From NCBI GenBank assembly GCA_040755995.1, contig JBFMAF010000036.1, forward strand, positions 128,001 through 192,000: 64,000 bases of DNA, written 5' to 3'. Numbering within the stretch: position 1 is the first letter of the stretch; each line of letters starts with the position of its first letter. Source of the stretch: Acidobacteriota bacterium. GTDB lineage: Bacteria > Acidobacteriota > CAIWXX01. Positions 5,175 to 43,518 of this stretch are shown here, piece after piece. The notes under the pieces are model-generated. The model was not told the origin of the DNA. It saw nothing but the letters and a program-made list of their open reading frames with translations, and did no database searches. The position numbers were made by a program, and so were the translations under genes.

Positions 5175-5693
5175 CTACTGAAGCCCGTCGCCCGCGGCCA
5201 CGGCCTGCTCGATCGTCGACACCAGCAGAAACAGCGATCGAGCTCTGTCGGCGAGTGGCACGAATCCATGTCGGCTGTAGAAGCGGGCTGCCGTGTCATC
5301 CTTGGCTTCGGCCAGCACGGCGACAATGCCGATGTCGGTGCGGGACAGACGGGAGACTCGGAGGAGGGCATCCCTGAGGAGCGCCGATCCGAGGCCACGT
5401 CCCGATGCCGACTTGTCGACGGCGAGCCTGCCCAGGCAGGCAACTGGCACAGGATATCTTGGGCACTTTCGCCGAAGATCCGGAGGAATCGATTCGAATG
5501 CGATGCTCGCCACGCTGAGCGAGCAGAAGCCATATACACGTTCCGCATCCGACGCGACGAAAGTGCGCGAGTAGTTCTTGTCCTGCTGCTGCCTCGCGTA
5601 GAGTCTGATGAACTCGTCTAGGGCTGAATTCCCGCAGTCAAAGGAGCTCCGAATGTGGTCCCTGTTGAGGGGCTCGATCCGCCAGCCTGTCAT
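5175..5693 (-). CDS. GNAT acetyltransferase toxin (TacT/AtaT-like)
   Basis: Motifs FDCGNSALDEF, LGRLAVD..ASGRGLGSALL and FYSRHGF; overlaps the stop of the DUF1778 gene. Confidence 0.9.
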   Translation of the reverse strand: MTGWRIEPLNRDHIRSSFDCGNSALDEFIRLYARQQQDKNYSRTFVASDAERVYGFCSLSVASIAFESIPPDLRRKCPRYPVPVACLGRLAVDKSASGRGLGSALLRDALLRVSRLSRTDIGIVAVLAEAKDDTAARFYSRHGFVPLADRARSLFLLVSTIEQAVAAGDGLQ

Positions 5694-5974
5694 CGCGCCC
5701 GCACGCCCCGCAACAGCCTGCGCAACGCCTTGTTCGGTTCCGGCGGGTTCTCGATCGCCCTCAGGAAGATATCGCGATCGCGATCGCTGAGCACGATGGC
5801 CTCATGTTCGGAAAGAACGCGCCTGGCCGCGTCGCGAGCGTGTGCCAGCATGAACGCTGACAACGTGAGACCTGAGATGTCGGCTGCCCGCTCGATTTCT
5901 CCGCGGACCTGTGGGCTCAACCTGAGATCGATGCGAGCACTCCTCTGCGAGCGACGTGACGCTGACTTCGCCAT
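5690..5974 (-). CDS. DUF1778 (TacA-like) antitoxin
   Basis: RIDLRL..IERAA..LSAFML..A..I.LS.RD...F; SD AAGGAGG before ATG at 5974. Confidence 0.9.
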   Translation of the reverse strand: MAKSASRRSQRSARIDLRLSPQVRGEIERAADISGLTLSAFMLAHARDAARRVLSEHEAIVLSDRDRDIFLRAIENPPEPNKALRRLLRGVRAR

Positions 5975-6098
5975 CGCTGACCTCCTTTCCGGCAGTCTAG
6001 CACAATGTACGGAAAATTGCCACCATTTGCCGCGATCGAGATCGAGCGATCGGCTCGCCCGCGCGTGGCGTTGGCGACGGGTTCCGTGTGTTCCCATG

Positions 6099-7262
6099 TC
6101 AGTGGGATGGGTTCGAAGGTGGCGCGAGTATCTGTCCAAGCGACCGGATTGCGTCCTCGACAGGCCATACCTCGATCTCGTCCCAGTACTCGCGGTGTGA
6201 CCCACCGTAGAACAAGTAGCAGCGGGCGGACGGATAGTCCTCCTTGAAGAGGCGCAGCCCCGCCGCATCACGTCGCGAGAGCCTGGCACCCCGCTTGACT
6301 TCAATCGCGACAAGACCGCGCCGGCCGTACGCGACTATATCCACCTCTGCGCCGGTGCTTGTGCGCCAGTACGAAATCGAGTACTCCGACGCCGAATACT
6401 CGTTCATCGCGAGCAGTTCCTGCATCACGAGTGACTCTAGAGCGGCTCCTTCTATCTCCTCGGGCGTGTCCAGCGGCCCACTCGGCCTCAGCTGCCGGTA
6501 GACACCCACATCAAAGAAGTAGAACTTCGGGTGCGCAGCCATCCGCCGCTTGGCACGCCTGGTAAAGACCGGCACGCGGAAACCGAGCAGGAGGTCTTCG
6601 AGCAGGTCGAAGTGATACCCGACCGTCCTGCGATCGATCCCGGCCTCTCGCGCAATCTCAGCCGTGTTCAGCGTTGAGGCCTGGGAGAAGCTCGCCGTCT
6701 CGAGGAACCTGACGAAGGAAGCGATGTTCCTGGTCAGCCCTTCCTGCAGCACCTCCTCCCGGAGATACGTCTTGACATAGGACGCCAGGTAGTCCCGTGG
6801 CGCAGGCTCGGAGAAGATCGCAGGCATGTGCCCATAGAGCAAAGACTTTCTTAGATCGAAGTCATCTCCCAGCTCACCCGCCACCAATGGGAACATGCGA
6901 TACGTGTGCGCCCTGCCGGCCAGAAGATTCACACCGCCCCGGCGAAGTCTGCGGGCGCTCGATCCCGTCAGGACGAAACGCCATCCTCGAGCCTCGATCA
7001 TCCGGTGTACCTCGTTCAGAATCTCCGGGGCGCGCTGGACCTCATCGACCACCACCCATCCGCGATGGTTGCGCGGGACGAAGTCGGCGAGGCGCCCGGG
7101 GTGCGCGAGGAGCGACTGGTAGACATCGGCATCCAGCAGGTCGATGAACACGGCGTCACCACAGCGCTGTTTCAGCCATGTCGTCTTGCCCGTTCCACGA
7201 GGGCCGAACAGGAAAAAGCTGTGGCCCGCGGCCAGGGGTTTCGAAAGCATTCTGGCATACAT
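6099..7262 (-). CDS. AAA+ ATPase (AAA_14 + DUF4143, COG1373-like)
   Basis: Motifs GPRGTGKT, VVVDEVQ, LTGSS, PKFYFFDVG and YWRTSTGAEVD..AIEVK. Confidence 0.9.
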   Translation of the reverse strand: MYARMLSKPLAAGHSFFLFGPRGTGKTTWLKQRCGDAVFIDLLDADVYQSLLAHPGRLADFVPRNHRGWVVVDEVQRAPEILNEVHRMIEARGWRFVLTGSSARRLRRGGVNLLAGRAHTYRMFPLVAGELGDDFDLRKSLLYGHMPAIFSEPAPRDYLASYVKTYLREEVLQEGLTRNIASFVRFLETASFSQASTLNTAEIAREAGIDRRTVGYHFDLLEDLLLGFRVPVFTRRAKRRMAAHPKFYFFDVGVYRQLRPSGPLDTPEEIEGAALESLVMQELLAMNEYSASEYSISYWRTSTGAEVDIVAYGRRGLVAIEVKRGARLSRRDAAGLRLFKEDYPSARCYLFYGGSHREYWDEIEVWPVEDAIRSLGQILAPPSNPSH

Positions 7263-7412: not shown

Positions 7413-7775
7413 TCAGGTCACATACTGCCGCATGCGTTCGGCCTCTTTGCGCAGCGAGTCGGCTTCGCGTCGATGCGTCTCGGCCTCCACTTTCCAGCGT
7501 TCAACACTGTCCTGGTCAGATGGCGACTGTGTGGTTGCGTAGCGCTCGGCAGAACGCACTGCTGCTGCATCGGCTTCTCCGGCGAGCACCTCGGCTTCCT
7601 TGGCCTTCTTCTCCGCCTCGTCCGCAAGCTGGAGATAGCGCTGCGCCTCGGCTTCGTTCGGCTCCCTACCGCCCTCTCGCGCGAACGCCCGCTCCAGCAC
7701 TCCTCCGACCTCCTCCTGCGTCCGCGTGTCAGCAGGCCGAAAGCGCCCGGAATCGTCCCTATCTGGATCGTCCAT
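7413..7775 (-). CDS. hypothetical charged helical protein (120 aa)
   Basis: Last gene of the co-oriented cluster; A/E/R-rich; carries the RFRxAxxxTxxExxxxLxRAF motif. Confidence 0.7.
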   Translation of the reverse strand: MDDPDRDDSGRFRPADTRTQEEVGGVLERAFAREGGREPNEAEAQRYLQLADEAEKKAKEAEVLAGEADAAAVRSAERYATTQSPSDQDSVERWKVEAETHRREADSLRKEAERMRQYVT

Positions 7776-7831
7776 TGTTCATCTTCCCAGGTTGGAGCCA
7801 CCGAGTGCTGCGGGTAACGGCCTCACCGGCG

Positions 7832-8551
7832 CTAGTCCTTCTTGACATCGGCGGCCTCATCGGGCTTCTCGTAGCCCTTCTTCTCGGCTACCTCTTCGAC
7901 GCCCCACGTCCGGATCTCGCCGGCCTCTCGTCGCTTTTCCCAGGCCTCGTCACCCTTCTTGTCAGCCTCTTGACGCCACGCGTCCGCGTCTTTCTGCCGA
8001 GTCTCGGCCGTCTCCTTCAGACTATCCGCGTCCCACTTGTCCTTGGCGATTTCAGACCGCGTCCCAGCCGCCTCAGCCTGCAAGTCAGCGCGCTCGGCCC
8101 TGTGCCCCGCCTCCTCCTTGCGGTACTCTGATGCCTCCGCCTGGCGGTCCGCCGCCTGGGCCGCATAGTAATCCTTGTCTTCTTTGGACTCTGCACGCTC
8201 CGCCTGCCACTTTGCGTCGGCAGCTGAGTCGTCCTTGCGCTTGGCGTACCACTCATCCCAATCCGCGTCCTGCTTCTTGTGCCCCGCCTTGTACTCATCC
8301 CAGTCCGCCTTCTCCTTGGCGGCCCGGTCATCCACGGTGTCGGCCCACTTGCCCACCGCCTCCTCCGAATCCTTGCGGTCCTTCGGCGGCTCCTCCTTCG
8401 GCTTGTCCCAATCCAGGGCCTTTTCGACCTCCTTCTTCGTCTCCGGCGTGGCCTCGGTCTTGGCTTCCGTCTTCGCCTCGCTGGTACTCGTCGATTCGGC
8501 TTTCGCTTCCGTCGACGACGTGGTGCTGCTTTCCGACGTCTCTTCGGCCAT
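7832..8551 (-). CDS. hypothetical highly charged Trp-periodic helical protein (239 aa)
   Basis: SD GAGGTG; S/T/E-rich N-terminus followed by A/E/K/D-rich helical repeats with periodic W/Y. Confidence 0.8.
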   Translation of the reverse strand: MAEETSESSTTSSTEAKAESTSTSEAKTEAKTEATPETKKEVEKALDWDKPKEEPPKDRKDSEEAVGKWADTVDDRAAKEKADWDEYKAGHKKQDADWDEWYAKRKDDSAADAKWQAERAESKEDKDYYAAQAADRQAEASEYRKEEAGHRAERADLQAEAAGTRSEIAKDKWDADSLKETAETRQKDADAWRQEADKKGDEAWEKRREAGEIRTWGVEEVAEKKGYEKPDEAADVKKD

Positions 8552-8586
8552 GTGTCACCTCTCTGAGAAGTCCTCCGTGCTATGTC

Positions 8587-8775
8587 CTATGTCTTTCGTG
8601 CTGCGTCACGCTCGGGCTCGGGAAATGCCCTCGCAAGCGCCTGCTCGGTCTCCGACCGCGTCTCGTTCGGCGCCGCCCTGAAGCGAGCTTCATCGACCTC
8701 GCCGATCTTCTCGACGGCCTTGTCCGATTCCCGCACCGCCTCCTGTGTGATGTCCATGCTCCCCGGATTCGGCAT
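8587..8775 (-). CDS. hypothetical small acidic protein (62 aa)
   Basis: Strong SD GGAGGA; begins 16 nt after the ATPase stop; carries the RFRxAxxxTxxExxxxLxRAF motif. Confidence 0.7.
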   Translation of the reverse strand: MPNPGSMDITQEAVRESDKAVEKIGEVDEARFRAAPNETRSETEQALARAFPEPERDAARKT

Positions 8776-8790
8776 CTGTCCTCCTCCCGC

Positions 8791-11700
8791 CTAGGCGGTG
8801 GTCGCGCGGCCCGGTCCGTCTGCCACGCCCTGGAATCCTTGCAGCACGTGCGGCCGCTGCGCCCCCGAGTTGACCAGGTAGCAGAACGCCAGCGGGTGAA
8901 TGTGCTGTGGCGAAACCTCGAACGGTGCCACATCCTGCGCCATCCGCTGCACGACCTCCACCAGGCGGCCGAAGTTGTTCACGAATCCAGGTCGCTCCGC
9001 GGCCTCCTTCAGTCGATCGGCGAGAAGCTGCGCCTTCGGCGCAAGATCCCGTTGTACCACGAACCCGTACCAGCACTGCCGCCGGCAGAACCGGCATCCA
9101 GGCTCGATGCGTCTGGGCTGCACCGCCACCTGCCCTCGGAGTTCCTCCAGGAACGCGACGATCTGGTCGGCCGTTTGTGGTGTTGTCGGGCCCTCGTTCA
9201 TGAGCCCTGAAACGGCTCCGGAGAACAGCTCCTCCAATCGGAGATACGATCGGAAGCTGCCGAGGCCTCCGCGATAGTACCCGTGCCATTCCTTCAACGC
9301 GAGATGCGCCGTCTGGACGATATTGCAGAACAGGACGCCGGGCGCGGGCTCGACGCCGCCGAGGCGCTTGCGCAGAGCATTGAGAAGCGTCGCGCGCGTC
9401 CGCGCCCACTCCGCTTTCGCCGCCGGCGGCGAGCCCGCCATCAGGCTCGCGATGAAGTTATGGCATGCCTCGTAGCCGGCGGCATCGGGGGCGTTTGCAT
9501 CGGACAGGTACATGCAGGGGGAATCGCAGGGGGCGCACCCGGGCCACCGTCGGTATATATCACGCACTGTGTCTTGAAACGCAGTCATACGCTTTCGCAG
9601 TCCCTCGCGCCCGATGTCCCGCATGAACTGTTCGCGCAGGTTGTCCTTGACGCCGTACACCTGCAGCAAGATCGGCTTGTCCAGGAATTCGTTGTGGACC
9701 ACGGCCTGGCCCACACGCAACCGCACCACGTGCTCCTTCTGTTCCTGCGTCAGGTTCATGGCATTGCCCACCGACTGCCGGTCGTCTTCCGCGACGATAC
9801 GGTGCAGGATCTTGAGATTGGTGTTCTTCAGAACGTCCGGAGTCAGCTTGGCCGGCACCTGATCCACGATGATGAACCCCTCGCCGTACTCACGGATCTC
9901 GGCCAGAATATCGGAAAACATCTCCACGGCCTTCCCGCGCGGGTTGGCGGACTCGGCACTGAGCGCGGGCGGGATGTTCTTGAGGAGCCGGTGGGACTCC
10001 TCGATCAGCGTGATGTGCTGCAGGCCGCCGCCGTAATGCCGGGCAGTCTCGCAATACTCGTAGAGGTTTATCAGGAGCAGCGCCATGAGGAAGGCCTTCT
10101 CTGCATCATCCCCCACGTTCTTGAGCTCCATCACGGACGGCTTGCCGAAGAGCAGCTCCGCAGGGTATGAGTTGCGCGTGTTCAACATCGATCCCTTGCC
10201 CGCGATCAGGAGACTCTTGATGCGTGCCTTCAAAGCCGCCGAGATATCCATGCTCAGCTGCTGTGCGTATTTCTTCCGTTCCACGACGACGTCGATCTGG
10301 CGGTACAGGTCCTCGATCGTCGGCAGATACGGCACGTAGTCGTCCTTCGATGCGTCGATGAAGCGATTCTCCGAGCGGGAGAGGTCCCATCCCCGGTCTG
10401 TGTAGACGTCGAGGACCGCTTCCTCGAGGATGTACGGCATAGAGGCGTACATCGGGAAGCTGGCATTGAATACCGCCTTGAGCAGATCGATGTGGGTGAG
10501 CAGAGGGTAGCCGCGGGCGAAATGGAACGGGTTGAGGCGAAACGGGGACGTGGTCTCGTCCCCGAGTGTGAACACCTGCAGCTCGCGTCCCATCACAGGG
10601 TCCGCCAGCAAGACCCTGTACTCGGTCTTGGCCGGCTCGATCACCAGAAACGGCACCTGCTCGCGTTCGTATGCCACCCGCAACAACGCCAGACATGTAT
10701 TGGTCTTGCCCGCCCCCGTAATCCCGGTGATGAAAGTGTGCTTCGTCAGGCTTTTCGGTGGAACGTAGAAACGATCCGGCAGGACCTCGCCCCTGTAGAT
10801 CACCTGACCCAGCGCAAACCCTTCGGCAGCCGGTGGGTTGAGACCGAAGTCGGCGATTGGCGTCAACCGAATCCCAGGAACCTCCTCGCGCGGCATCCCC
10901 ATCACCAGCGACAGCTCGACGGTATTCAACGGAGTCGCGAGCTTGTGATAGATGGGTCCCAGCGGATGAGGAGCCTGTTCCGGGAACTGGATCTCGGGAT
11001 TGCGGAATTGCATGAGCGAGTCGCGGAGCGCCTCGTCATGCGCGCTCATATCGATCGACCGCAACGGTTCAAAATATGTCTCCTCACCCGACAGCACAGC
11101 CCGGACGACACCCTGTCCGCGATGCAGCGTGTTCTCGTTCTCAGCAAGAAGGAAGGTGCCGACATTCCACAGGCCGGAATTCTTGCCGTCCTGCAGGCGC
11201 TCCACGTACCGGTCCAGCAGCGACTCGCAGAACGCCGCAGTCTTGTTGAGAATCTCACGGCTGATGCCGCGCGTGCGCTGCTCGGACGTCGTGTCGGTGC
11301 GACCCATCGAGAACCCGGCACCCCCGACCACGGCGCTCAGGATCGGGCTGGCCGCTCCGAGCAGCGGACCGAACCCGAGCATGCCTCCGAGCAGCGTGGC
11401 CCCGCCGACGATGAGGCCGCCGCCGAGCGACCCGCCTTTCTGGTCGGCCCGCGAGGTCGTCTGTCCGATGGAGTCGCTCATGGTGCCGCGGACGTAAGCA
11501 TGAATCTCGGAGCTCAGCTCGCGGCACCTCTGGATCACCTCGTCGACCGTCGGCTCGCGAATCGGTTCGGCGATCACCACCAGGCAGTACTGCTCGCCGC
11601 GCAGGCTGTTGGCCAGCCGTTCGAGCCCCTGGACAAACACATCCTTCGACCCCTCTTTCAGCGACGGAATCCCGGTGATCGCGCCGATCCGCCGCAGGCT

Positions 11701-12174
11701 GGCGATGGGACGCAGCAGTTCCAGCGAGACATCGCGCGGCCCGAGCGAGCTCAGGCGAATGCCTGGGTAATTGCCGTGCAGAGCGCTGTCCAGGACTTCG
11801 ATCAGGTCGGCCGTGTGCTCGTGGCTGGCGGCATCCGACTTGTACAGGCCCATGTAGAGCTGCGTGCGATGCCCCTCGCTCCCGACCACGAACGCCAGCG
11901 AGTGAGAGCCGTCGCGGAACGAGCTAATCACGTTCTGCATGTTCAGGGCGTGAAGGCTCCGGCTCACGTCCGGCGAATGCGCAACTTCTGTGATCCGAAG
12001 GAACCGCAGGTTTGCCATCAGATTCGCGTCGGGCTTGACCTGTACCAGCCCGAAGTCGGGGACGCCGGGGAGGTAGCGCCGCTCGAGCGCCGTCAACAGG
12101 CTCTGACTTAGAGCGCTGTCGGACAGAGCCATCATCTGGCCATGGGGTCCTGCTACCTGCAAAGGCATATCCAC
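8791..12174 (-). CDS. large HerA/VirB4/FtsK-superfamily ATPase (DUF87-like)
   Basis: KHTFITGITGAGKT (Walker A), HITLIEESHRLL (Walker B), EIREYGEGFIIVDQVP and NTNLKILHR. Confidence 0.85.
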   Translation of the reverse strand: MDMPLQVAGPHGQMMALSDSALSQSLLTALERRYLPGVPDFGLVQVKPDANLMANLRFLRITEVAHSPDVSRSLHALNMQNVISSFRDGSHSLAFVVGSEGHRTQLYMGLYKSDAASHEHTADLIEVLDSALHGNYPGIRLSSLGPRDVSLELLRPIASLRRIGAITGIPSLKEGSKDVFVQGLERLANSLRGEQYCLVVIAEPIREPTVDEVIQRCRELSSEIHAYVRGTMSDSIGQTTSRADQKGGSLGGGLIVGGATLLGGMLGFGPLLGAASPILSAVVGGAGFSMGRTDTTSEQRTRGISREILNKTAAFCESLLDRYVERLQDGKNSGLWNVGTFLLAENENTLHRGQGVVRAVLSGEETYFEPLRSIDMSAHDEALRDSLMQFRNPEIQFPEQAPHPLGPIYHKLATPLNTVELSLVMGMPREEVPGIRLTPIADFGLNPPAAEGFALGQVIYRGEVLPDRFYVPPKSLTKHTFITGITGAGKTNTCLALLRVAYEREQVPFLVIEPAKTEYRVLLADPVMGRELQVFTLGDETTSPFRLNPFHFARGYPLLTHIDLLKAVFNASFPMYASMPYILEEAVLDVYTDRGWDLSRSENRFIDASKDDYVPYLPTIEDLYRQIDVVVERKKYAQQLSMDISAALKARIKSLLIAGKGSMLNTRNSYPAELLFGKPSVMELKNVGDDAEKAFLMALLLINLYEYCETARHYGGGLQHITLIEESHRLLKNIPPALSAESANPRGKAVEMFSDILAEIREYGEGFIIVDQVPAKLTPDVLKNTNLKILHRIVAEDDRQSVGNAMNLTQEQKEHVVRLRVGQAVVHNEFLDKPILLQVYGVKDNLREQFMRDIGREGLRKRMTAFQDTVRDIYRRWPGCAPCDSPCMYLSDANAPDAAGYEACHNFIASLMAGSPPAAKAEWARTRATLLNALRKRLGGVEPAPGVLFCNIVQTAHLALKEWHGYYRGGLGSFRSYLRLEELFSGAVSGLMNEGPTTPQTADQIVAFLEELRGQVAVQPRRIEPGCRFCRRQCWYGFVVQRDLAPKAQLLADRLKEAAERPGFVNNFGRLVEVVQRMAQDVAPFEVSPQHIHPLAFCYLVNSGAQRPHVLQGFQGVADGPGRATTA

Positions 12175-12175
12175 C

Positions 12176-14056
12176 TCACTTCTTGAGCTGGGTCACGGCA
12201 CAGATCGCCAGCCCCCTGGCGATCGTCTCCTCCGGGTTCGGCGCAAGAATCGGCGGGCGGTCGAGAGCCGCGCGCACGGCGTCGCCCGCGAAGTACCACC
12301 GCGCACTCCCGCCCGCCAGGATGACATGATCCAGGTGCACGGGCCTGAAGCCGATCCTTCCCGGGGCCTCGACGAGCGCATCCTGCAGCTGCTTGCGTGC
12401 CTCGGTCAGGAGCTGGTCCATCTCGACACGCGTCATTGAGATGCGCGTCGGTGGATCGCCCGCCGGAATGACGCAGTACTGGACATGCTCATTCCGTCCC
12501 TCGGCAAACGACCTCGACGCCTCTTCCTTGAAATCGCGCGCCAGCAGGGCGAGCGCGCGATGGTCCTCGTCCGAGAGCTCCAACTGCAGATGCTGGAGCA
12601 ACCAGTTCTCGATCATCATGTCAAACCACATGCCGCCCAGAGGAAGCTCCGTGTGATCGATCACGACCGGAGGCGACCCTTCGCCGCGTATCTCCACGAA
12701 CGAGATGCCCAGACCCTGGCTGCCCCAATCGAGCACCATCGCGTGCTCGGTGTCTCGGGGCGCCTTCTGGAGATGGAACGCCGCCGCGGCGAGAGGCTCG
12801 GGCACGAGCATTGCCAGCGGGAATCCGGACTGCTCAACCACCTCTGCCAACGCTTGCATGCGTTCCTCGGGCCAATCGGGCGGCACACCAAGAGCCGTCG
12901 CCGCGCCCTCGTGAGAATCAACCGAGCCCGGCCCGAGCACCTCGACCAGACGATAGCACAGCATCGTGAGAAAGCTGCGTGCCGCCTGAGCCGCCTCGCC
13001 CGAATCAGCTCCAATCTCGCCTGCGAATCCCAGGCTGACCTCATCCGGCGCCTGCGGCCACAGGCCCAGTGCGGCCTGGCCGAACAGGTCGGCGGAGCCC
13101 CCGGCGGACAGCTTCACGGCTGACGGGACCATCGTGCGCGCATCGAAGCGCACGAAGTCGGGCGGCGCGAGCAGGCGCCGGCCGTCGGCGCGGGCGTAAG
13201 CCAGGTAGGAATAGCCGCGACCCAGCGCGAGCCCAGTGATCGTGCGCGCGCCTCGCCGAGCCGGACGCTCACGATGCACACGGGCCAGACTCGAGAGGTT
13301 CCTCTGGGGTTCGGGTTTCGGCGGCCGCGCCTGAGCCGGCGTCGGGGACGGCGCCGGCGCTTGCACCTGCACAACGGCGCCGGCTCCAACCAGAGCCGCC
13401 CGAAGCCGCTCCGCGACCTCAAACGACAACTCCACGGCCAGCAGCACCGGCGCGCTCGCGACGAATGCGCTCGCGTCAGAGGGATTGAGGCCGAGGACCT
13501 GCCGGAGCGCGACGATGACACGCGGCCGATATGGGCCCGCAGAGACGAGCGTTATGTTGTATCCGGTCTGAGCGGCCGGCACCGGCGCCGCTGGAGACGC
13601 TGCGATCGCCGGTGGAGCTTGAGGCTGCACCACAGGCGCCGACCTTGGTGCAGCTGGTTGTCCCGGCGTGTGTTGCGGTGGAACCGAGGCGGCCGGTTGT
13701 TGTCCAGACGTCGGCGCCACAGGTACGGCAGCAAGCGCGGCGGGAGCTCGGACCGGTGGTGACTGCCGCTGGACCGCGGGCGCGGCCACAACGGGAGCCG
13801 CTGGAGGTTGCGCTGCAGCTGTTGCCGGGGCGCGATCAGTAGACATAGTCGGAGCCGCGGTCGCTGCGGCAACGGTTGGGGTTGCAGTCGGCGCGGGCGA
13901 TTTGAGAGTTGCAGGGGTTGGCGGATCCGGCGGCCCTGCGGGCTCTCCCGCGTCGGCGCGCTCTCCGCATTTCTGGCAGAAGCGCCCTTCAGGTGGCAGT
14001 TTCGAACCACAGCTAGTGCAAAATCTCGACGGCGGATTCTTCGCGTTCTCAGGCAT
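12176..14056 (-). CDS. zinc-ribbon + Pro/Ala linker + ribosomal L7/L12 C-terminal-like + Hsp70-like nucleotide-binding domain protein
   Basis: FCTSCG..FCQKCG; YNITLVSAG..VIVALRQVLGL..A..FV.SAP..L..AGAVVQV; GVPPDW, VPEPLAAA, VLDWG, ILAGGSAR and PEETIARG. Confidence 0.8.
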   Translation of the reverse strand: MPENAKNPPSRFCTSCGSKLPPEGRFCQKCGERADAGEPAGPPDPPTPATLKSPAPTATPTVAAATAAPTMSTDRAPATAAAQPPAAPVVAAPAVQRQSPPVRAPAALAAVPVAPTSGQQPAASVPPQHTPGQPAAPRSAPVVQPQAPPAIAASPAAPVPAAQTGYNITLVSAGPYRPRVIVALRQVLGLNPSDASAFVASAPVLLAVELSFEVAERLRAALVGAGAVVQVQAPAPSPTPAQARPPKPEPQRNLSSLARVHRERPARRGARTITGLALGRGYSYLAYARADGRRLLAPPDFVRFDARTMVPSAVKLSAGGSADLFGQAALGLWPQAPDEVSLGFAGEIGADSGEAAQAARSFLTMLCYRLVEVLGPGSVDSHEGAATALGVPPDWPEERMQALAEVVEQSGFPLAMLVPEPLAAAAFHLQKAPRDTEHAMVLDWGSQGLGISFVEIRGEGSPPVVIDHTELPLGGMWFDMMIENWLLQHLQLELSDEDHRALALLARDFKEEASRSFAEGRNEHVQYCVIPAGDPPTRISMTRVEMDQLLTEARKQLQDALVEAPGRIGFRPVHLDHVILAGGSARWYFAGDAVRAALDRPPILAPNPEETIARGLAICAVTQLKK

Positions 14057-14072
14057 CGGATTCACCCTTGTG

Positions 14073-14100
14073 CAGTTGTCAGTTGCCAGTTGTCGGTTGC
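14073..14100. repeat. heptamer tandem repeat
   Basis: CAGTTGT CAGTTGC CAGTTGT CGGTTGC. Confidence 0.7.
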
Positions 14101-14202
14101 GGACGATGCTGAGTGCCCCGCCGCGATCGCGAACTGTCTCGGCGCCGTGACGTCGCACCTTGTGTCCCGGGCATCTCTCTTCCCGTGGAGGGGAGCGGCC
14201 CA

Positions 14203-14943
14203 CTACCCTGCGGGGCTGCCGCAGTGGTCGCAGAATCTGGCGTCCGCGTGGAGCTCGTGCCCGCAGGTGAAGCACCTCTTGGATGCCGCGGCCCCGCATG
14301 CGTTGCAGAACTTCGAGCCGGGTTGCAGCGGCTGGCCGCACTGAACGCAGGCCACCGGGCCTGCTGCAACTCCCGCCTGACCTGGCGACCCCATGGTGAC
14401 TGGCGGAGGTGGCCTGACAGGGCCATGTGGTGCGCCAGGTTGCCCCTGAGCGGAGCCGAATGCTTGCGGGCCCTGAAACGGCGCCTGGGACGCGCCGAAG
14501 CTGGGAGCCGTGCTGAATCCGGGGGCGGCGCCGGCGGGCGAGCCGCCGAACGCGGAGTTCGTCCTCACGTACTCCTCGATGAAACGCCATGCTTTGGTCT
14601 GCAACTGCGACTGCTGGTAGGCCCCGACCCCCGCCGTGATCAGCGCAGGGAAGAAGACGATGGCTCCCACGCCGGCCACGACACCCTTGTCAGCCCACTT
14701 CGCTCCTCCCATCTCGACACTCACGTACTCGCCTTCCAGGCCGATCATGGCCGTCAGAGCGGACGACATCCCGGCGATCTTGCGGAGTGTGTCTTCTTTG
14801 CGTGCCTGGACGGTCAAACCGCCGTTCGGCGCCGGCATGATCTGAGTCTGATACCCGTCCCTGGCGAACCATTCCGTGAGCGATTGGGCCAGTGCCTGCA
14901 TGTCAATGTCGGGGCCGTAGAAGTGGCGCTTCTCCATGGGCAT
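14203..14943 (-). CDS. double zinc ribbon (DZR) protein with hydrophobic Gly-rich segment
   Basis: C-terminal CVQC/CNAC/CFTC/CDHC; segment GVVAGVGAIVFFPALITAGVGA; SD GGAGG. Confidence 0.85.
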   Translation of the reverse strand: MPMEKRHFYGPDIDMQALAQSLTEWFARDGYQTQIMPAPNGGLTVQARKEDTLRKIAGMSSALTAMIGLEGEYVSVEMGGAKWADKGVVAGVGAIVFFPALITAGVGAYQQSQLQTKAWRFIEEYVRTNSAFGGSPAGAAPGFSTAPSFGASQAPFQGPQAFGSAQGQPGAPHGPVRPPPPVTMGSPGQAGVAAGPVACVQCGQPLQPGSKFCNACGAAASKRCFTCGHELHADARFCDHCGSPAG

Positions 14944-15012
14944 GGTCTAGACCTCCTTCAACCTTCGCTTCTATGTGCAGCGCTACGATCTGTCGGAACC
15001 GTATCTCCGGGC

Positions 15013-15672
15013 TCAGAAGAACACCGAGTCCGAGACCTTCTCTCCGCGATTGACGCGCTCGGCCACCTTGTATCCATCGAACGCGCAGGCCACCGCAAAT
15101 ACCAACCCCAGCAGCATCCACAGCGAGAAGATGCCGGGATTCGTCAACACCATCTGCTCCTGGCCGAACATGTCCATCATCGGAGTGTAGGCACCCCTGA
15201 GAATGACGAACGACGCGATCCACCAGACGGCGAGTTGAATCGCCCCTTTCTTCATCTGTCCGTTATAGAAGGCCTGCGCCCCGAACCCGCCTAGAAAGAA
15301 CCCCAGCGCCGCAGCTACGCCCTGGCTCTTCCGCTTCGAGACCGGCTGCGCCGGGTAGTATCCTGGCGGATAGGCGCCCGGTGCCTGCGCCGGTGGAGGG
15401 CCGTACGGTTGAGGCGCCTGTGGTGGTGCATAGGGCACCCCGACGGGCGGCTGGCTCGGCGGGTACTGCGGAATTGCGGGTGGCGGCGCCTGAGGCGGCT
15501 GGTAGTACTGTCCACCTGGGTAGGCAGAGGTGGGAGGTGGAGCCTCTGACTGCGGCGGGGCCGGAGCGATCGGAGGCTGTGGACTCGGAGCGGCGGCGAC
15601 GGGTGCACCGCAGGACATACAGAAGCGAGCATCATCGGCATTCTTGGTCCCGCACTGACTGCAGAATGGCAT
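15013..15672 (-). CDS. zinc-ribbon + Pro-rich + TM2/NINE membrane protein
   Basis: MPFCSQCG..FCMSCG; KSQGVAAALGFFLGGFGAQAFYNGQ (TM2 signature); SD GAGGTG. Confidence 0.85.
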   Translation of the reverse strand: MPFCSQCGTKNADDARFCMSCGAPVAAAPSPQPPIAPAPPQSEAPPPTSAYPGGQYYQPPQAPPPAIPQYPPSQPPVGVPYAPPQAPQPYGPPPAQAPGAYPPGYYPAQPVSKRKSQGVAAALGFFLGGFGAQAFYNGQMKKGAIQLAVWWIASFVILRGAYTPMMDMFGQEQMVLTNPGIFSLWMLLGLVFAVACAFDGYKVAERVNRGEKVSDSVFF

Positions 15673-15986
15673 AGGATCACCTCTTCAGAGTATTGTCGAG
15701 TGGAGTTTCGAAGCAGACCCGCGGGTCCTCACGCCGGCTTGCGGCGCCAGGGCAGGCGATCGACCGGACGCGCTCGCGGCGAGCCTTGCGGGTAGCCGGC
15801 ATAGCGCCCAAGATAGGCGTGCCCGGCGCCGTTGTCAAGCCCGCTGCGCGCAGGAGAACGGAAGAGGCGAGTGGCAGCCTGCCCATCGGCCTTTCATGCA
15901 GCTCGCCTGGCCGTCACGTGCGTTCGACACGGGCCCGCGTCGTTCATCACATTGCACGGCGCGCGAAGGCGGCTCCATCGTATGGT

Positions 15987-30184: not shown

Positions 30185-32008
30185 ATGTGGGGCTGCTATC
30201 TGAAGATCGACGGCGAGATCCTGCAGGACGCGATCCTGCTGGATGTGGAGGTGACGCAGGAGCTCAATCGACATTGGCGGTGTCGAGTGGATTGCCACGA
30301 GGCGGAGGACAAGCGATTCCCGGTAGAGGACTGGCTGGGCAAGGACCTGCAGGTGATCGTGCGCGACCAGGATGACGCCGAGCACGTCGTGTTCGATGGA
30401 TTCGTACTGGAGTCGGGGCTGGAGCACGAGGTATTCGGCTGCTACATGGCCTCGATCGCCGGCGTGACCAGGTCACACAAGATGGACCTGACCCCGCGGC
30501 AGGCCTACTACACCGGCAAGACCATGGAGGACCTGGCAGGCGAATTTGCAGGCAACGCCGGGCTGGACGCTGAGGTGAAATGGTCGGCGAAGCCCGCTCT
30601 GGACTACGTGCAATGGGGCGAGACGGACTGGCGGTTCCTGCTGCGCCTGCTCGATGACAGCGATTGCTGGATTCGCCCCACCGCGAGCGGCATAGAGATC
30701 AGCGACTCCTTCAAGGACGCCGGCACGAAATTGCAGTGGCGCGGCGAGAGCGGGGAGAAGGGGCTCTTGAGCTTCAAGGTCAAGGGCAGGCTCACCCAGC
30801 CGTCCTTCGACGGTGCGCACTATCACGCGGCGAAGATGGAGAGCGCGACCTTTTCACAGATCAGTCAGGAGCCGACCTACTACGGCTCCAGCGGGTCCAT
30901 GGTGGACGCCGCCCAGCGCGCGTCAAAAGACAAGATGCTTACCGGATATCGTCCTACGCGCCGCCGGGCCGATTCGCTCGATGGATATGAGAAGATCCTG
31001 AAGAGCGAGAGCGAAAGATCGATCGGCAGCAGTGTCGTCGCATCGGGCGTCAGCAAGAATCCCGAGCTGGCTCCGGGCAACGAAGTCTCGATCGACGGGG
31101 TGCTCGACGCGAAGGGCAGCTATGGGTTGACCCGGGTCGTTCATCGTTGGACGCCGACGGGCTACGTAAACGAGTTCTCGTCGACACCGTGGAAAGCATA
31201 CCGCGAGCCGCATCCGGCCCCGCCCGATGAGTTTTGCGGCTTCACGCCGGCCCGCGTTGTTGCCAACGCCGACCCCGAGAGCCGCGGGCGATTGCAGGTT
31301 CAGTACTACTGGCAGGAGCAGAATCAGACGCGGTGGGCGCGCAGGATGACGCCTCACGCCGGCTCTGACCGCGGGTTCTACTTCACGCCGGAGATCGGCG
31401 ACGAGGTGCTCGTGGGGTTCCAGGAAGGCGACCCTGAACGGCCCGTGGTCCTGGGGTGTCTGTGGAACGGTGTCGACCGCGCGCCGGTCGAGGAGTTCTG
31501 GGGTGGTGAACATGGCGGGGACGACGTCAAGCGGATCGTGACCAAGAGCGGCCATCGGATCCAGATCGTCGACAAGGACGGCAAGGAGTCTATCGTCATC
31601 GCCACGCCGAACGAGTTGAAGGTCTCGATGATCGAGAAGACCGATGAGACCGGCCGCTCGATGATCACGCTGCACACCGAGAGCGGCGACATCTTCGTGA
31701 GTGCGCCGAACGGGCGTGTGCATTTCCACAGCAAGTTCTTCACGCGCGAAGTCGGCGTTGCGAGTGCAGCGGCCGCAGCGGCTCCATCGGCCGGTGGGGA
31801 GGAGAAGACGTCCTGGGTCGAGATCGAGATGGTGGACGAGGAGGGCAACCCGGTCGCGGGCGAACGATACCGGGTGACGCTGCCCGACGGGAGTGTGGTC
31901 GAAGGCACGCTGAATCGTCAGGGGTTGGCGCGTATCGACGGCATCGACCCGGGAACCTGCCAGATCACCTTTCCGAGCCTGGACCAGGAGGCCTGGGAGA
32001 AAGCGTAG
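30185..32008 (+). CDS. vgrG: VgrG-like spike protein (gp27/gp5-like) with C-terminal transthyretin-like extension
   Basis: VQWGETDWRFL.RL, ARVV.N.DP...GR.QV, TRWAR, RGFYFTPEIGDEVLVGF..GDP.RP.VLG.LWN and I.TKSGH. Confidence 0.85.
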   Translation: MWGCYLKIDGEILQDAILLDVEVTQELNRHWRCRVDCHEAEDKRFPVEDWLGKDLQVIVRDQDDAEHVVFDGFVLESGLEHEVFGCYMASIAGVTRSHKMDLTPRQAYYTGKTMEDLAGEFAGNAGLDAEVKWSAKPALDYVQWGETDWRFLLRLLDDSDCWIRPTASGIEISDSFKDAGTKLQWRGESGEKGLLSFKVKGRLTQPSFDGAHYHAAKMESATFSQISQEPTYYGSSGSMVDAAQRASKDKMLTGYRPTRRRADSLDGYEKILKSESERSIGSSVVASGVSKNPELAPGNEVSIDGVLDAKGSYGLTRVVHRWTPTGYVNEFSSTPWKAYREPHPAPPDEFCGFTPARVVANADPESRGRLQVQYYWQEQNQTRWARRMTPHAGSDRGFYFTPEIGDEVLVGFQEGDPERPVVLGCLWNGVDRAPVEEFWGGEHGGDDVKRIVTKSGHRIQIVDKDGKESIVIATPNELKVSMIEKTDETGRSMITLHTESGDIFVSAPNGRVHFHSKFFTREVGVASAAAAAAPSAGGEEKTSWVEIEMVDEEGNPVAGERYRVTLPDGSVVEGTLNRQGLARIDGIDPGTCQITFPSLDQEAWEKA

Positions 32009-32048
32009 GCCGGCGAAGGCCGAGCTGTCAGGTGGGGAGGGTGCGCAT

Positions 32049-32690
32049 ACGGGCCACGTTCACCGAGTGAAACAGGGCGAATGTTTCGAAAGCATCGCCT
32101 TCAAGTACGGGTTCAATTGGGAGACCCTCTGGGCGCATCCTCAGAACCAGAGGCTGCGCGAGAAGTCCAAGACGCCGAATATCGTGATGCCTGGGGACGA
32201 GATCTACATACCAGAGAAGCGGGCCAAGTCCGAGGCCGGGGCGACCGAGCAGTCGCATCGCTTCAAACTCAAGGGCGTTCCGTCCAAGGTCCAACTTCGA
32301 ATGGTCGACTCAGCCGGCAAGATCCGCGCGGGCCTCAGCTACGTCATGGAGATTCAGGACGGCCCCACCTACCGCGGAAAGATACCGGCAGATGGCTGGA
32401 TCAGGCATAGCATCCCGCCAAATGCGAAGACGGCCAGACTCGAAGTGACCGACAACGTCGTGACCGAGGAGTATGTTCTTCAACTGGGCGGTCTTGACCC
32501 CATCTACGAGGTGACCGGCATTCAGCAACGGCTCAAGAACCTCGGCTATGACCTGGATGATGCCCCGGGCGCGTTCGGCCCGGCTACCGAAGCCGCCATC
32601 TGCAGTTTCCAAACGGCGCACGGTCTTACGGAGACAGGCGAGGCCGACAAGCGGACGCTTGACAAGCTGTTGGAGGTCTATGGCTGCTGA
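32049..32690 (+). CDS. LysM + transthyretin-like + peptidoglycan-binding domain protein
   Basis: HRVKQGECFESIAFKYG (LysM) and IQQRLKNLGY..G.FGPATEAAI.SFQ..HGL..TG (PG_binding_1). The probable start codon at 32049 is ACG; the first GTG is at 32067. Confidence 0.85.
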   Translation, partial: TGHVHRVKQGECFESIAFKYGFNWETLWAHPQNQRLREKSKTPNIVMPGDEIYIPEKRAKSEAGATEQSHRFKLKGVPSKVQLRMVDSAGKIRAGLSYVMEIQDGPTYRGKIPADGWIRHSIPPNAKTARLEVTDNVVTEEYVLQLGGLDPIYEVTGIQQRLKNLGYDLDDAPGAFGPATEAAICSFQTAHGLTETGEADKRTLDKLLEVYGC

Positions 32691-32857
32691 GGCCGTTCGC
32701 ATCCCACTCAACACAGCCTGCCTGAGGCCGTTCACCACGCACAGACGCAAGGGTGTCGCAGGGCGGCCGCAGCTGCTGGGTTGCCGAGAGCCGCACTCGA
32801 CCGGGCGCATCAGGCCCCGCTCCATACTCAGTTGTCTTGCCCGGTGAGGTGCCTGCC

Positions 32858-34888
32858 ATGGGTGACGAACAGGAGAAGCCAGACCCGTATGCGAACGGAA
32901 AGGAGCCTTCGACGGAGGGTGCTGGGGCAAAGAGTGCCACCACATCGGAGGGCGCCGGGACGACCAAAGAATACCGGGATGACGATCATGACGACAGCGA
33001 TCACGACAAGGACAAGTCGGAGTTTCCCGGGGACCTCCGTGACGATGACCACGATCACCTGACGGATCACGTAAACGAAGGGGCCCCGCCTCCGGTGCCA
33101 CCTTCTCCGGTTGTCCCTGTCACGCGAACGACCAAGTACCACAGCGTGAACCCACCCGGACCGGCTGAAAGTAGTGCTCAAGTCGAATTCGGCCCCGTCA
33201 AGATCTTCAGGACCCGCGAGGACTGGAAGACGAGGGCCGCCAAACACACGTCCGCACTCGAAGGTCGCATACCGGACATGTATCTCGACCACAAGGGATA
33301 TGTGACGGTGGGTATTGGCCACTATCTGCCGAAGGCGGACAGCGCGAGTCATATCCCCTTCCAGTTCAAAGCGTCTTCAGGCAGGACAGGAGAGGGATCG
33401 GCCAGTGACAAGGCGGACGAGTGGAAGATGGTTTTGGATCATGGAGCGGCTCTGAAGAAGGCCGGAAAACTGAAGTCGCCCAGACGAGTGCCAAACACGA
33501 AGCTCTTCATGTCGGACACCGCGATCGACGAGCTTCTCCGTCGGGACATGGAAGCGCGCTACCCTACACTGGAACGACGCTACGATGCGTTCAAGAGCTG
33601 GAATCCCAAAGAACCGTCCCCTGTCAAGTTCCACAAGTTCAGGGACCTGCCGGACTCGGCCAAGGTAGTCCTTTTCGACATGATGTTTGGACTTGGAGAA
33701 TTCGGCCTGTTCGGAGGAGGAAAGAAGACCGGGTTCCGGATGCTGCTTACCGCCATCAAAGCGGGAGATTGGGAAACGGCAGCCGAGAATTGTCACATCA
33801 CGAACACGGTACGCGAGACGCGGAACAAGAGAAACCGGGCACTGCTCCTGCAGGCGGCCGAGGAGGCCGGCGTAGCGGTGCAGCCGGAGAGCCCAAAGAC
33901 GCCACCGCCGACACCGGCACCCGCCAAGCCGGCCCCCAGCCCGCCTCAGGTCACTCCAAAGACCACCACGGTCAATACCCTCGGTGGCCGAAAGCGGGAA
34001 CCTATCGTCTATCCACGCGTGCGACTCCTGAAACAGTGGGACAAGCGCTGGAATGTTGGAAAGAAGAAGGCCCCGGGCTTACTATGGAAGCCCCCTTGGA
34101 CGAACCTGCGGGAGAAGAAGTACCGACCGTATGCCAACTGGCAGAACTCCGGGTGCTGTCCAACGTCTCTGGCCATGGTTCTGCGTTGGTGGGCCGAGGA
34201 CAACCCCGCCACGCAGGGGAAATTGAGCTTTCCAAAGGGACCCGCCGCCGGGACGTACGGCTCGCCGCCGATGAACCCCGTGGACATCAATCATCGCCTT
34301 CACGGCTCGCTCTATGTTCCGACCAGAGAGGTCGGCGGGTCGCTGAAGATCGAAGGTCGCTCGGTTGTCCCCTACGGCCTGGACTACAAGGCCGTCCTCA
34401 ATGCCGCCCGACAGGTATCGCTGGTGCTTGAGGACGGTACTACCAAGGGCATGCAAGTGCACTACCAGCCGTGGAATCAGGCCAGCGCTAGCAACCCCAA
34501 GCACGTGGAGCTGAAGAAGGAAATGCTACGCAAGGGCCTCTGCTACGGGCCGATGCTCGCGAACATGACCTTCCCAGGTCATTTCGTGGTCGTGCAAGGG
34601 TATCGGGCCGGGAAAATATACATTTGCGACCCCGGCAACGACCTTCATTACAAATGGGGCTCGCCCGTCGAGAGCGAAAAAGAGATGCCGACCAAGGAAG
34701 CTCTCCGCGCCGGCGGGGATGACGTGGATGCCCCGGGGCGAGGTTACAACGCTGTTCCTGAGGGAGCGAAGTTTACGCCCAAACTGAAGCACGGAAGCCC
34801 CAAGCGTCCACTGACGTGGCTCGAGTCCGTGATCGGCCTGGTCTATTTCTACTTCGACGAGAAAGCTATACATCCGGAATGGCGTTGA
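32858..34888 (+). CDS. putative cell-wall-targeting effector: phage-type lysozyme + C39-like peptidase
   Basis: LEGRIPDMYLDHKGYVTVGIGH (E-x8-D-x5-T); Pro-rich linker; KQWD.RW, SGCCPTSLAMVL, GHFVVVQGY and YICDP. Confidence 0.8.
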   Translation: MGDEQEKPDPYANGKEPSTEGAGAKSATTSEGAGTTKEYRDDDHDDSDHDKDKSEFPGDLRDDDHDHLTDHVNEGAPPPVPPSPVVPVTRTTKYHSVNPPGPAESSAQVEFGPVKIFRTREDWKTRAAKHTSALEGRIPDMYLDHKGYVTVGIGHYLPKADSASHIPFQFKASSGRTGEGSASDKADEWKMVLDHGAALKKAGKLKSPRRVPNTKLFMSDTAIDELLRRDMEARYPTLERRYDAFKSWNPKEPSPVKFHKFRDLPDSAKVVLFDMMFGLGEFGLFGGGKKTGFRMLLTAIKAGDWETAAENCHITNTVRETRNKRNRALLLQAAEEAGVAVQPESPKTPPPTPAPAKPAPSPPQVTPKTTTVNTLGGRKREPIVYPRVRLLKQWDKRWNVGKKKAPGLLWKPPWTNLREKKYRPYANWQNSGCCPTSLAMVLRWWAEDNPATQGKLSFPKGPAAGTYGSPPMNPVDINHRLHGSLYVPTREVGGSLKIEGRSVVPYGLDYKAVLNAARQVSLVLEDGTTKGMQVHYQPWNQASASNPKHVELKKEMLRKGLCYGPMLANMTFPGHFVVVQGYRAGKIYICDPGNDLHYKWGSPVESEKEMPTKEALRAGGDDVDAPGRGYNAVPEGAKFTPKLKHGSPKRPLTWLESVIGLVYFYFDEKAIHPEWR

Positions 34889-41974: not shown

Positions 41975-42361
41975 ATGAGCCAGCCTGTGAAACTATCCGA
42001 TGCGCTGGTGCTGGACGCCCGGCTGGCAGCCGAAGCGGTGGAACGCTCCATTGCGGGCCAGGTGGAGTTCTGGGCAAGACTCGGGAAGGCCATCGAGCCG
42101 CTGCTCCAGGGGACGCAGGTGATTGCCCTGTGTCGTGATGGTGCGACGAGGCCGCTTTCCGACTGTCTGAAATCCGTGGATTCCGCCGCGGGTCGCCGGC
42201 ACGTCGCAGAGTTCCTCCGGAGCCAGCCCTGGCCGCACTACGAACCGCACGCGAAGCGGGCTGGCCTGCTGGTGCGCACCGAAGCCAGCGGGAGGCGGAC
42301 AGTCGGGCGATTCGTCAATCGGAGGTTTCAAGCGGTGAGGGTGAAGGCCGCCGGGCGATGA
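41975..42361 (+). CDS. ParD-like antitoxin
   Basis: MSQPVKLSDALV.DAR..A....RSIAGQVEFWARLG. Confidence 0.8.
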   Translation: MSQPVKLSDALVLDARLAAEAVERSIAGQVEFWARLGKAIEPLLQGTQVIALCRDGATRPLSDCLKSVDSAAGRRHVAEFLRSQPWPHYEPHAKRAGLLVRTEASGRRTVGRFVNRRFQAVRVKAAGR

Positions 42362-42936: not shown

Positions 42937-42960
42937 ACTCGTCTTCCGGAGACGGACACA

Positions 42961-43470: not shown

Positions 43471-43518
43471 CTCAACTCGTGGCACCGTGTGGCGCCGCGT
43501 GATATACAATGCGGATGC

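Follow-up and report, generated by a model that had tools for sequence, protein, structure and literature searches.

How might a bacterium use a motor of the VirB4 class when four of the proteins that usually accompany such motors cannot be recognised in its genome? The question is raised by a seven-gene operon on the minus strand of a 64,000-nucleotide stretch of an Acidobacteriota genome (assembly GCA_040755995.1, contig JBFMAF010000036.1, positions 128,001 to 192,000; the whole stretch is here called the window, and positions are counted from its first letter). A first-pass annotation, made from the letters alone, had seen in this operon a candidate export or conflict system composed of zinc-ribbon membrane proteins, an Hsp70-like fusion, a giant ATPase and three small helical proteins. 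We propose that the ATPase is probably a stand-alone, VirB4-derived protein exporter, export itself being the step that we infer, and that the operon represents a variant within a family of polymorphic-toxin loci that is apparently undescribed and has a lone motor of the VirB4 type at its centre. No description of the system was found in the literature searched, which was mostly openly accessible, the supplements of two Zhang surveys lying outside its scope.

The VirB4-fold ATPase and its hairpin insert

The product of gene 4 (genes are numbered as in Table 1) was modelled with AlphaFold2 (pLDDT 84), and the top Foldseek matches of the full ATPase were R388 TrwK/VirB4, over about 1000 alignment columns. 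The motor domain resembles VirB4 (4ag5, Z 33.8), the C-domain of DndH (Z 33.7), HerA (Z 28) and EccC (Z 18.1). Folded alone, the N-terminal domain matches TrwK (7o42; Z 17.9, root-mean-square deviation 3.7, 267 residues aligned) and next chains of ESX-3 (Z 9.4) and ESX-5 (Z 7.4), which we take to be EccE, with all others at or below 5.7 and HerA chains absent among the matches listed; the Atlas structure search gave only unnamed clusters and, at 0.85, a lead to DUF8128. According to these models, gene 4 encodes a VirB4-fold ATPase in both its N-terminal domain and its motor, and its Walker A and B motifs are intact. This architecture had been overlooked in the first-pass annotation, as had the hairpin insert, the L7/L12-like domain of gene 3 and the family-wide association with toxin and immunity genes described below. 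The Cys-containing C-terminal domain, for which there is no solved relative by sequence, is a candidate cargo-docking domain.

The genome is 99.84% complete and holds a single copy of the system. Searches of it for VirB3, VirB6, VirB10 and VirD4 gave 0 matches each, a result that very divergent forms could escape, and no relaxase was found among the window genes scanned, no genome-wide relaxase search having been made. The protein is like VirB4/TrwK of the R388 type IV secretion system (T4SS) in the folds of its N-terminal domain and motor, but differs in the missing partners, in the additional hairpin insert and Cys-containing C-terminal domain, and in having cargo-immunity pairs as the neighbours of its family. 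With type VII secretion systems (T7SS; ESX and T7SSb, with their WXG/LXG toxins), the family shares a pump of the FtsK/HerA superfamily, small helical partners, antidotes of the SUKH and YezG kinds, and cargo that lacks a signal peptide and combines a helical leader with interchangeable nuclease tips. It is set apart by a single active VirB4-type motor domain, where EccC/EssC/YueA have several FtsK domains, by its Hsp70-like or dynamin-like partners, and by the lack of WXG100 proteins: PF06013 had 0 matches in the genome, and W-x-G was not found in genes 5-7. In the accessible parts of two surveys, HerA/FtsK pumps are tied to toxins via YueA and WXG/LXG alone (PMC3113570, PMC3482391).

The HerA proteins of defence and repair (Sir2-HerA, HerA-DUF4297, NurA-HerA, DndH, mad8 of MADS, CedD) have a motor core of similar fold (Z 23-34), but the ATPase scores only 28-68 bits against the curated HerA families, whose cut-offs are 600-970, and a Sir2, NurA or DUF4297 partner was not found. 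PADLOC returned weak matches to the HerA/mad8 core and nothing stronger. The earlier judgement that the locus is unlike NurA/Sir2-HerA, T4SS or T7SS arrangements is thus upheld. The best NCBIfam match is NF033849 (ser_rich_anae_1, a serine-rich protein), at 96.9 against a cut-off of 650, with 13 relatives at 68-131; CedD comes second, far under its cut-off. Members of NF033849 are similar in having, in the N-terminal half, a Ser/Thr/Gly insert with two-residue periodicity, although theirs is longer (about 225-400 aa (amino acids) in L167-L181, by our numbering of loci), and 30 of 401 genomes pass the family cut-off. Its Anaerolineae members adjoin a gene with multiple transmembrane segments rather than toxins, and by eye the loci lie after that gene and mostly before SAF/CpaB-like and receiver/MinD-like genes; NF033849 may be a related machine that spans the envelope but does another job.

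An insert of variable length sits between two helices of the ATPase N-terminal domain. In the domain model of the window protein it is a hairpin with two 17-residue strands and a tip of pLDDT < 50. A survey of 107 ATPases, reduced to 68 at < 70% identity, found an insert of at least 60 aa in 54 of the 68; that of the window's subclade is short (81-87 aa). A hydrophobic 31-residue tip is present in 28 of the 54 inserts and is placed at 0.52 +/- 0.03 of the insert. The arms on either side of the tip are 18-87 residues long (all but one at least 25) and correlate in length with a Pearson coefficient of 0.91, which kinship inflates; their mean difference is 7.6, against 60.5 for random placement (0/10000). 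Ser, Thr and Gly recur with two-residue periodicity (z near +24 for even lags, near -16 for odd ones). The remaining 26 inserts are without a helical tip, several having a short amphipathic turn by eye.

In the anthrax protective-antigen pore and in aerolysin-type stems, long Ser/Thr-rich hairpins oligomerise into a conduit with a membrane-inserting tip. By analogy with such beta-barrel pore stems, the hairpins of the ATPase may also form a barrel. No sequence or fold match to beta-barrel translocases was found, and in the present protein an ATP motor is joined to the hairpin; the barrel is conjectural. Prediction of a four-copy complex of the hairpin stalk reached 0.19 against a mark of 0.42 and was counted neither for nor against.

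The cargo slot, leaders and immunity genes

The gene order across the family is accessory NTPase, ATPase, leader-bearing cargo and immunity gene. A toxin-like domain lies within 1.2 kb downstream at 63 of the 83 hairpin loci that have at least 1 kb of downstream sequence (48 of 63 non-redundant loci). WHH (29), NS_2 (12) and LHH (6) account for 47 of the 63 and are confirmed by Pfam, the other 16 being labelled by motif as metallopeptidase (4), restriction-type (4), two HNH-like types (7) and PoNe (1). The seeds used in this count matched only five times in the remaining 925 kb of flank, and four of these matches are second cassettes. The 20 hairpin loci without a toxin match comprise eight of the window's clade, six from a clade whose small proteins are of another kind, and six others. 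Pfam domains downstream of the ATPase are WHH/colicin-DNase, LHH, NS_2, deaminase and weak metallopeptidase, and then SUKH, YezG, DUF6985 or PoNi; an apparent immunity gene usually follows directly after the toxin, in what looks like cargo-immunity pairing.

By a crude rule, a Sec-like signal occurs in 0 of 68 proteins of the toxin slot, and the first 80 residues are net acidic in 63 of 68. The same leader may precede different tips: it is common to an LHH protein at L021 and an NS_2 protein at L030 (74% over residues 1-140), to an NS_2 protein at L022 and a WHH protein at L023 (67% over residues 1-99), and to the proteins of L138, L139, L143 and L144 (64-79% over about the first 80 residues). 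Five tip types occur in a single short-branched Synergistota clade of seven rows. The leader tracks the ATPase clade, which suggests that the cargo is protein. Judged from its sequences, the ATPase family as a whole conforms to the polymorphic-toxin pattern, with a constant N-terminal region, swappable tips and an adjacent immunity gene. The constant trafficking region, the variable C-terminal toxin and the adjacent immunity gene are as described in the accessible part of the polymorphic-toxin survey PMC3482391, but the present export route is not among the routes given there, that part of its text contains none of the terms hsp70, dnak, virb4 and dynamin, and the window's cargo has no recognised toxin.

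Loci that lack the hairpin have a seed match nearby in only 1 of 14 cases. Nevertheless, the hairpin-less ATPases of Anaerolineae, which have a small membrane gene upstream, precede proteins with a common leader (64-79%) and, by eye, restriction-type or HEXXH tips. The toxin link would therefore be a property of the motor family, which would have at least two solutions for the membrane, the hairpin among them.

Genes 5-7 occupy the corresponding position in the window. As the first-pass annotation had noted, they encode charged helical proteins without a signal peptide; the proteins are acidic (isoelectric point 4.7-4.8) and free of hydrophobic segments. None of the three reaches a family at the Pfam cut-off. 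Gene 6 (239 aa) has no Pfam, NCBIfam or PADLOC family and no recognised enzymatic domain, and all its matches in the Atlas structure search have a TM score < 0.5; it has few relatives, and is present at L001-L007, the closest loci, and at L136, with 29-60% identity. It is placed as the cargo on two grounds, its gene position and its divergence, which is faster than that of the ATPase (29-60% against 65-78% identity). Gene 7 (120 aa) has no solved relative by sequence, occurs at L001-L008 and L025 and belongs to a family of 58, none with a Pfam match. At L008 it is accompanied by a papain-like gene and the latter's own neighbour, with no 239-aa gene before the contig end, which suggests that the 120-aa protein is an adaptor rather than an antidote; it is a candidate adaptor or co-exported subunit. 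Gene 5 (62 aa) has homologs at L006 (58%) and L136 (46%). Against a profile of the gene 7 motif its family ranks 8-10 of 1487, just behind seven gene 7 members, and it resembles the N-terminal motif of gene 7, the protein having nothing further after it; the hhalign probability is only 18.

A conserved motif of the 239-aa protein is similar in look to that of gene 7 but has no significant score. Homology between the 120-aa and 239-aa families, proposed by eye, was rejected (no alignment, probability 0.5), as was a single leader for all three small proteins: the likeness held for the 62-aa/120-aa pair, and the 239-aa protein ranked 68-745 of 1487. The earlier proposal that the small helical proteins are substrates of the machine nevertheless gains from their filling the slot that holds cargo in relatives, and in the window's subclade that slot appears to be filled by non-enzymatic helical proteins. 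Elsewhere in the window's clade, the cargo is papain-like (L008) or a metallopeptidase (L009, L029), and L009 also has an RHS gene.

Three further sets of small proteins were noted in the survey. In a separate clade (L053, L054, L069, L072, L081, L085, L090, L104, L108 and L128), the gene after the ATPase encodes 200-230 aa with an amphipathic N terminus and no known domain, and dynamin-like genes lie downstream in some. An unnamed family of 100-115 aa (L009:3083-3403, L029:13331-13666, L045:1449-1796, L126:12161-12466 and L143; partly by eye) stands directly upstream of acidic-leader metallopeptidase genes at Chloroflexota-type loci and on a cyanobacterial plasmid, and is a candidate antidote or chaperone. 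The cargo-slot proteins at L067:4536-5207, L099:12193-12696, L015:10913-11536 and L041:12613-13122, which have HNH-like, restriction-type or no motifs and no Pfam or NCBIfam match, are candidates for new toxin families with adjacent candidate antidotes.

Layout, partners and spread of the operon

All seven genes were confirmed as co-oriented minus-strand open reading frames, and the core of their order is conserved in relatives. Outside the gene 3/gene 4 junction, the intergenic gaps are 69, 146, 15, 35 and 56 nt. At that junction, the 1-nt gap reported earlier holds only with the GTG start at 12174; the ATG at 12168, which leaves 7 nt, is likelier because the database record of the ATPase is 1125 aa long and matches to its closest homologs start at residue 2-3. 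Two sigma-70-like sites occur in the region against 0.8 expected in shuffles, so the promoter candidate of Table 1 is weak and no evidence of function. The G+C fraction of the operon is 0.65 against 0.63 for the genome, its flanks have no common repeat of at least 10 nt, and the window genes scanned include no integrase.

Table 1. Features of the operon (positions within the window)
Feature	Position	Strand	Description
Promoter candidate	15810..15838	-	Sigma-70-like; about 140 nt upstream of gene 1; 10/12 consensus matches
Gene 1	15013..15672	-	219 aa; Zn_Ribbon_1, Pro-rich linker and TM2 membrane domain (Pfam over cut-off); accessory
Gene 2	14203..14943	-	246 aa; unnamed N-terminal domain, hydrophobic hairpin at residues 84-102, linker, double zinc ribbon (Pfam DZR)
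Gene 3	12176..14056	-	626 aa; zinc ribbon, Pro/Ala linker, L7/L12-C-terminal-like domain, degenerate Hsp70-type nucleotide-binding domain
Gene 4	8791..12168 (alternative start 12174)	-	1125 aa; modelled as VirB4-fold ATPase; Pfam DUF87; N-terminal domain with hairpin insert, motor domain, Cys-containing helical C-terminal domain
Hairpin insert of gene 4	11248..11490	-	Strand 11440-11490, Gly-rich hydrophobic tip 11299-11439, strand 11248-11298
C-terminal domain of gene 4	8794..9633	-	Two conserved CxxC-x-C clusters; cysteines invariant in 10 clade members
Gene 5	8587..8775	-	62 aa; acidic protein
Gene 6	7832..8551	-	239 aa; acidic helical protein; position is the toxin slot of relatives
Gene 7	7413..7775	-	120 aa; helical protein; constant partner across the clade

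The first three genes each carry CxxC zinc ribbons and Pro-rich stretches, and two of them, genes 1 and 2, have hydrophobic segments (maximum 19-residue hydropathy 2.31 and 2.27), all as first annotated. Among the 26 loci of a GTDB scan, gene 1 has a homolog at L006 only, although other zinc-ribbon membrane genes flank L007, L008 and L019. Homologs of gene 2 are found at L001-L007 with 56-73% identity; a fusion of its domain to Hsp70 at L008 was considered and dropped, there being no significant match.

Gene 3 matches Pfam HSP70 (E 4e-14), at profile positions 138-372 of 599 only, and Ribosomal_L12 (E 7e-8). In the window and at L001-L006 its phosphate-1 Asp is replaced and its phosphate-2 loop altered, whereas both loops are intact in the Hsp70-like homologs of Synergistota and PVC. 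Of the marks of a DnaK/Hsp70 chaperone, intact phosphate loops and a substrate-binding domain, it has neither, the latter not being found by Pfam. The co-occurrence of ATPase and Hsp70-like gene on which the first-pass annotation had staked its proposal is present: an Hsp70-like gene lies upstream of the ATPase at 21 of the 26 GTDB loci; the remainder comprises three loci without upstream DNA and two with broken ATPase genes. In many other relatives, dynamin-like GTPases take its place. Scored with our own profiles, the 65 hairpin loci with 3 kb upstream divide into 21 with an Hsp70-like gene, 28 with a dynamin-like gene and 16 with neither, the last including profile misses (L005, L089, L113) and some loci that bear Sel1 repeats; L126 has an Hsp70-GTPase fusion. 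Given the altered phosphate loops, the absent substrate-binding domain and the replacement by dynamin-like GTPases, the view of gene 3 as a chaperone-like subunit, first supposed, is not supported in the strict sense, and a scaffold appears likelier.

A comparable Hsp70 without a peptide-binding domain, together with zinc ribbons and transmembrane components, is described for the DO-GTPase/GAP1 conflict systems in the accessible part of Kaur et al. 2020 (PMC7159879). As described there, those systems have no VirB4-type motor and are proposed to be intracellular; their defining DO-GTPase and GAP1 had no Pfam match in the present operon, and weak DO-GTPase matches were seen near L013 and L126 only. 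The L7/L12-C-terminal-like domain of gene 3 recurs as nine repeats in a 752-aa protein downstream of the system at L023 (16640-18898).

The seven closest loci of the GTDB scan, L001-L007 (L001 and L002 near identical), have a full-length ATPase with 65-78% identity to that of the window. Genes 2, 3, 4, 6 and 7 are present at all seven, as expected of the conserved, dedicated machine proposed earlier, and genes 1 and 5, each at one of the seven, appear to be accessory. At L007, a Chloroflexota record, the set is complete but its order permuted; L136 repeats the order ATPase, 62, 239, 120; and the copy at L025:7993-8929 is broken, apparently by deletion, part of the ATPase N-terminal domain leading straight into the 120-aa gene. 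The arrangement thus recurs in Acidobacteriota and Chloroflexota genomes, and the closest named relatives of the genome are Acidobacteriota.

The wider survey added the best 80 of 443 metagenome loci, together with 17 loci on viral contigs and 4 of the 42 hits on plasmids. A FastTree tree gave long-branch warnings, so local clades alone were relied on; with a support of 99, a clade of 10 rows groups the window with L008, L009 and L029. Distribution is patchy. Of 61 genomes sampled from the window's phylum, only 2 have the system, its own among them; in the order of L001 there are 3 of 401 at E <= 1e-60, that of L001 included, and in the class of L007 33 of 401 match, mostly in the motor core only. 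The clusters retrieved by a profile of the N-terminal domain number 2657 at E <= 1e-3, 1968 at 1e-10 and 1083 at 1e-30. Named records come from Acidobacteriota, Chloroflexota, Synergistota, PVC, Cyanobacteriota and Lactococcus, others from gut metagenomes, and relatives occur on plasmids and viral contigs, 23 of the 42 plasmid hits being typed as non-mobilizable. A Lactococcus cremoris plasmid (pB26B; L127, NZ_CP032437.1, 1619-12124) carries a WYL gene, two dynamin-like genes, two small genes, a hairpin ATPase, an HNH protein and a putative antidote.

Elsewhere in the window, an AAA_14/DUF4143 ATPase (a PADLOC PDC-S01 match) and a TacA-GNAT toxin-antitoxin pair lie directly downstream of the operon on the same strand (5175-7262), an adjacency that is not kept in most relatives. 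At 30185-34888, a peptidoglycan-binding gene and a 676-aa gene that belongs to no family come after a VgrG-like spike gene (Phage_GPD and Phage_base_V), and together they may form an orphan contractile-injection cassette. At 41975-49053, a ParD-like/zeta-toxin pair precedes large genes, including ones of 1086 aa and 656 aa without a Pfam match at 1e-8.

Proposed mechanism and competing explanations

VirB4/HerA motors oligomerise and commonly move DNA. We suggest that the ATPase would oligomerise in the same way and that its hairpins would then reach the membrane, where, side by side, they could form a barrel lined by Ser, Thr and Gly, with the hydrophobic tips in the bilayer, in place of VirB3/VirB6. 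The motor would recognise the acidic N-terminal leader of its cargo and thread it unfolded, while the zinc-ribbon membrane proteins, together with the Hsp70-like or dynamin-like partner, would keep the motor in place or reshape the membrane. The cargo of most relatives would be a nuclease or peptidase toxin, held in check by a cytoplasmic antidote and directed against neighbouring cells. In the window, the 239-aa protein would be the cargo, the 120-aa protein an adaptor or co-substrate and the 62-aa protein a leader-only remnant or a modulator. More tentatively, and as a possibility that we would not yet favour, a single polypeptide could combine motor and conduit in what would be a new class of secretion system: a VirB4-type ring with a length-tunable beta-barrel needle and a membrane-piercing tip for the delivery of leader-tagged toxins. 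Arms of 25-87 residues would correspond roughly to 8-29 nm before strand tilt, and the needle may be aimed across the envelope, into a neighbouring cell or at a phage compartment.

Several observations weigh against a toxin exporter of this kind. The toxin count of 63 among 83 loci is partly circular, especially in its 16 motif-labelled cases, because the seeds were taken from the same slots, and the loci counted are mutually related. No toxin or immunity gene can be recognised at the window's locus or at its seven closest GTDB loci, and the rest of the genome has no ATPase paralogs and no match to the toxin seeds. A leader common to genes 6 and 7 is unproven, given the ranks of 68-745 and the failure of the two families to align. 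The full hairpin is absent in 14 of the 68 non-redundant ATPases and, as the Anaerolineae loci indicate, is not required for the toxin link, while the sister family NF033849 has no adjacent toxin at the 15 loci read. Finally, the WYL regulators and dynamin-like genes upstream would also fit anti-phage islands.

This last point bears on an explanation that we consider rather unlikely, namely an intracellular anti-phage role in which the motor senses infection and strips the antidote from a nuclease (abortive infection), or uses its hairpin to pierce a phage compartment inside the cell and pumps the nuclease in. A WYL regulator does lie upstream at many Firmicutes-type loci, some of the dynamin-like partners weakly match LeoA/LeoBC, the motor core is also like DndH and defence HerA proteins, and the patchy spread and the DUF4143 ATPase with its GNAT-TacA pair just downstream would be in keeping with a defence island. 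However, the PADLOC matches are weak and confined to the HerA/mad8 core, and the SUKH/YezG/PoNi antidotes, tip swapping, second cassettes and RHS gene at L009 form the pattern of inter-cell toxins, as the accessible part of PMC3482391 presents it. The lack of a recognised toxin or immunity domain in the window, its degenerate Hsp70 site, its short hairpin insert and the stable, non-swapping small proteins at all seven close loci and L136 might instead mean that this subclade is disarmed and exports nothing, the helical proteins being structural subunits of a membrane-stress or scaffolding complex. We find this quite improbable, as the Walker motifs, hairpin and hydrophobic tip are retained, at L008, a member of this clade, the 120-aa gene goes with one for a papain-like protein, and the 239-aa protein outpaces the ATPase in divergence, as cargo would.

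Streptomyces TraB and archaeal Ced are single-protein DNA transfer machines, and a machine of this type on a mobile element, with the toxin-antidote genes as a maintenance or recipient-selection module, would suit the usual business of VirB4/HerA motors, the second-place CedD match, the relatives on plasmids and viral contigs, and the NF033849 proteins, which have the same kind of insert and no toxins. It is a very doubtful explanation here: VirD4 was not matched in the genome, the window genes scanned hold no integrase, flank repeats and a marked G+C difference are missing, more than half of the plasmid hits are typed as non-mobilizable, and the tracking of ATPase clades by the leader points to protein as the cargo. 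That unrelated genes merely cluster by chance, as the occurrence of genes 1 and 5 at few loci might hint, has next to no probability, being refuted by synteny: the core order is kept in two phyla, and at L007 the set, though permuted, is complete.

The stand-alone protein exporter thus remains the explanation that we prefer, and it would have consequences beyond this operon. Polymorphic toxins are sorted by their export routes and, to our knowledge, every known route needs either a multi-protein machine or a Sec signal; here is an ATPase family that has neither and is yet widespread. The proposal gives a testable role to many proteins annotated only as 'ATP-binding' or 'DUF87', and would provide a link between the VirB4 of T4SS and T7SS-like toxin export. 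The cargo slot itself serves as a pointer to unnamed toxin and antidote families, and the presence of a complete copy on a plasmid of the dairy organism Lactococcus cremoris makes the question directly testable.

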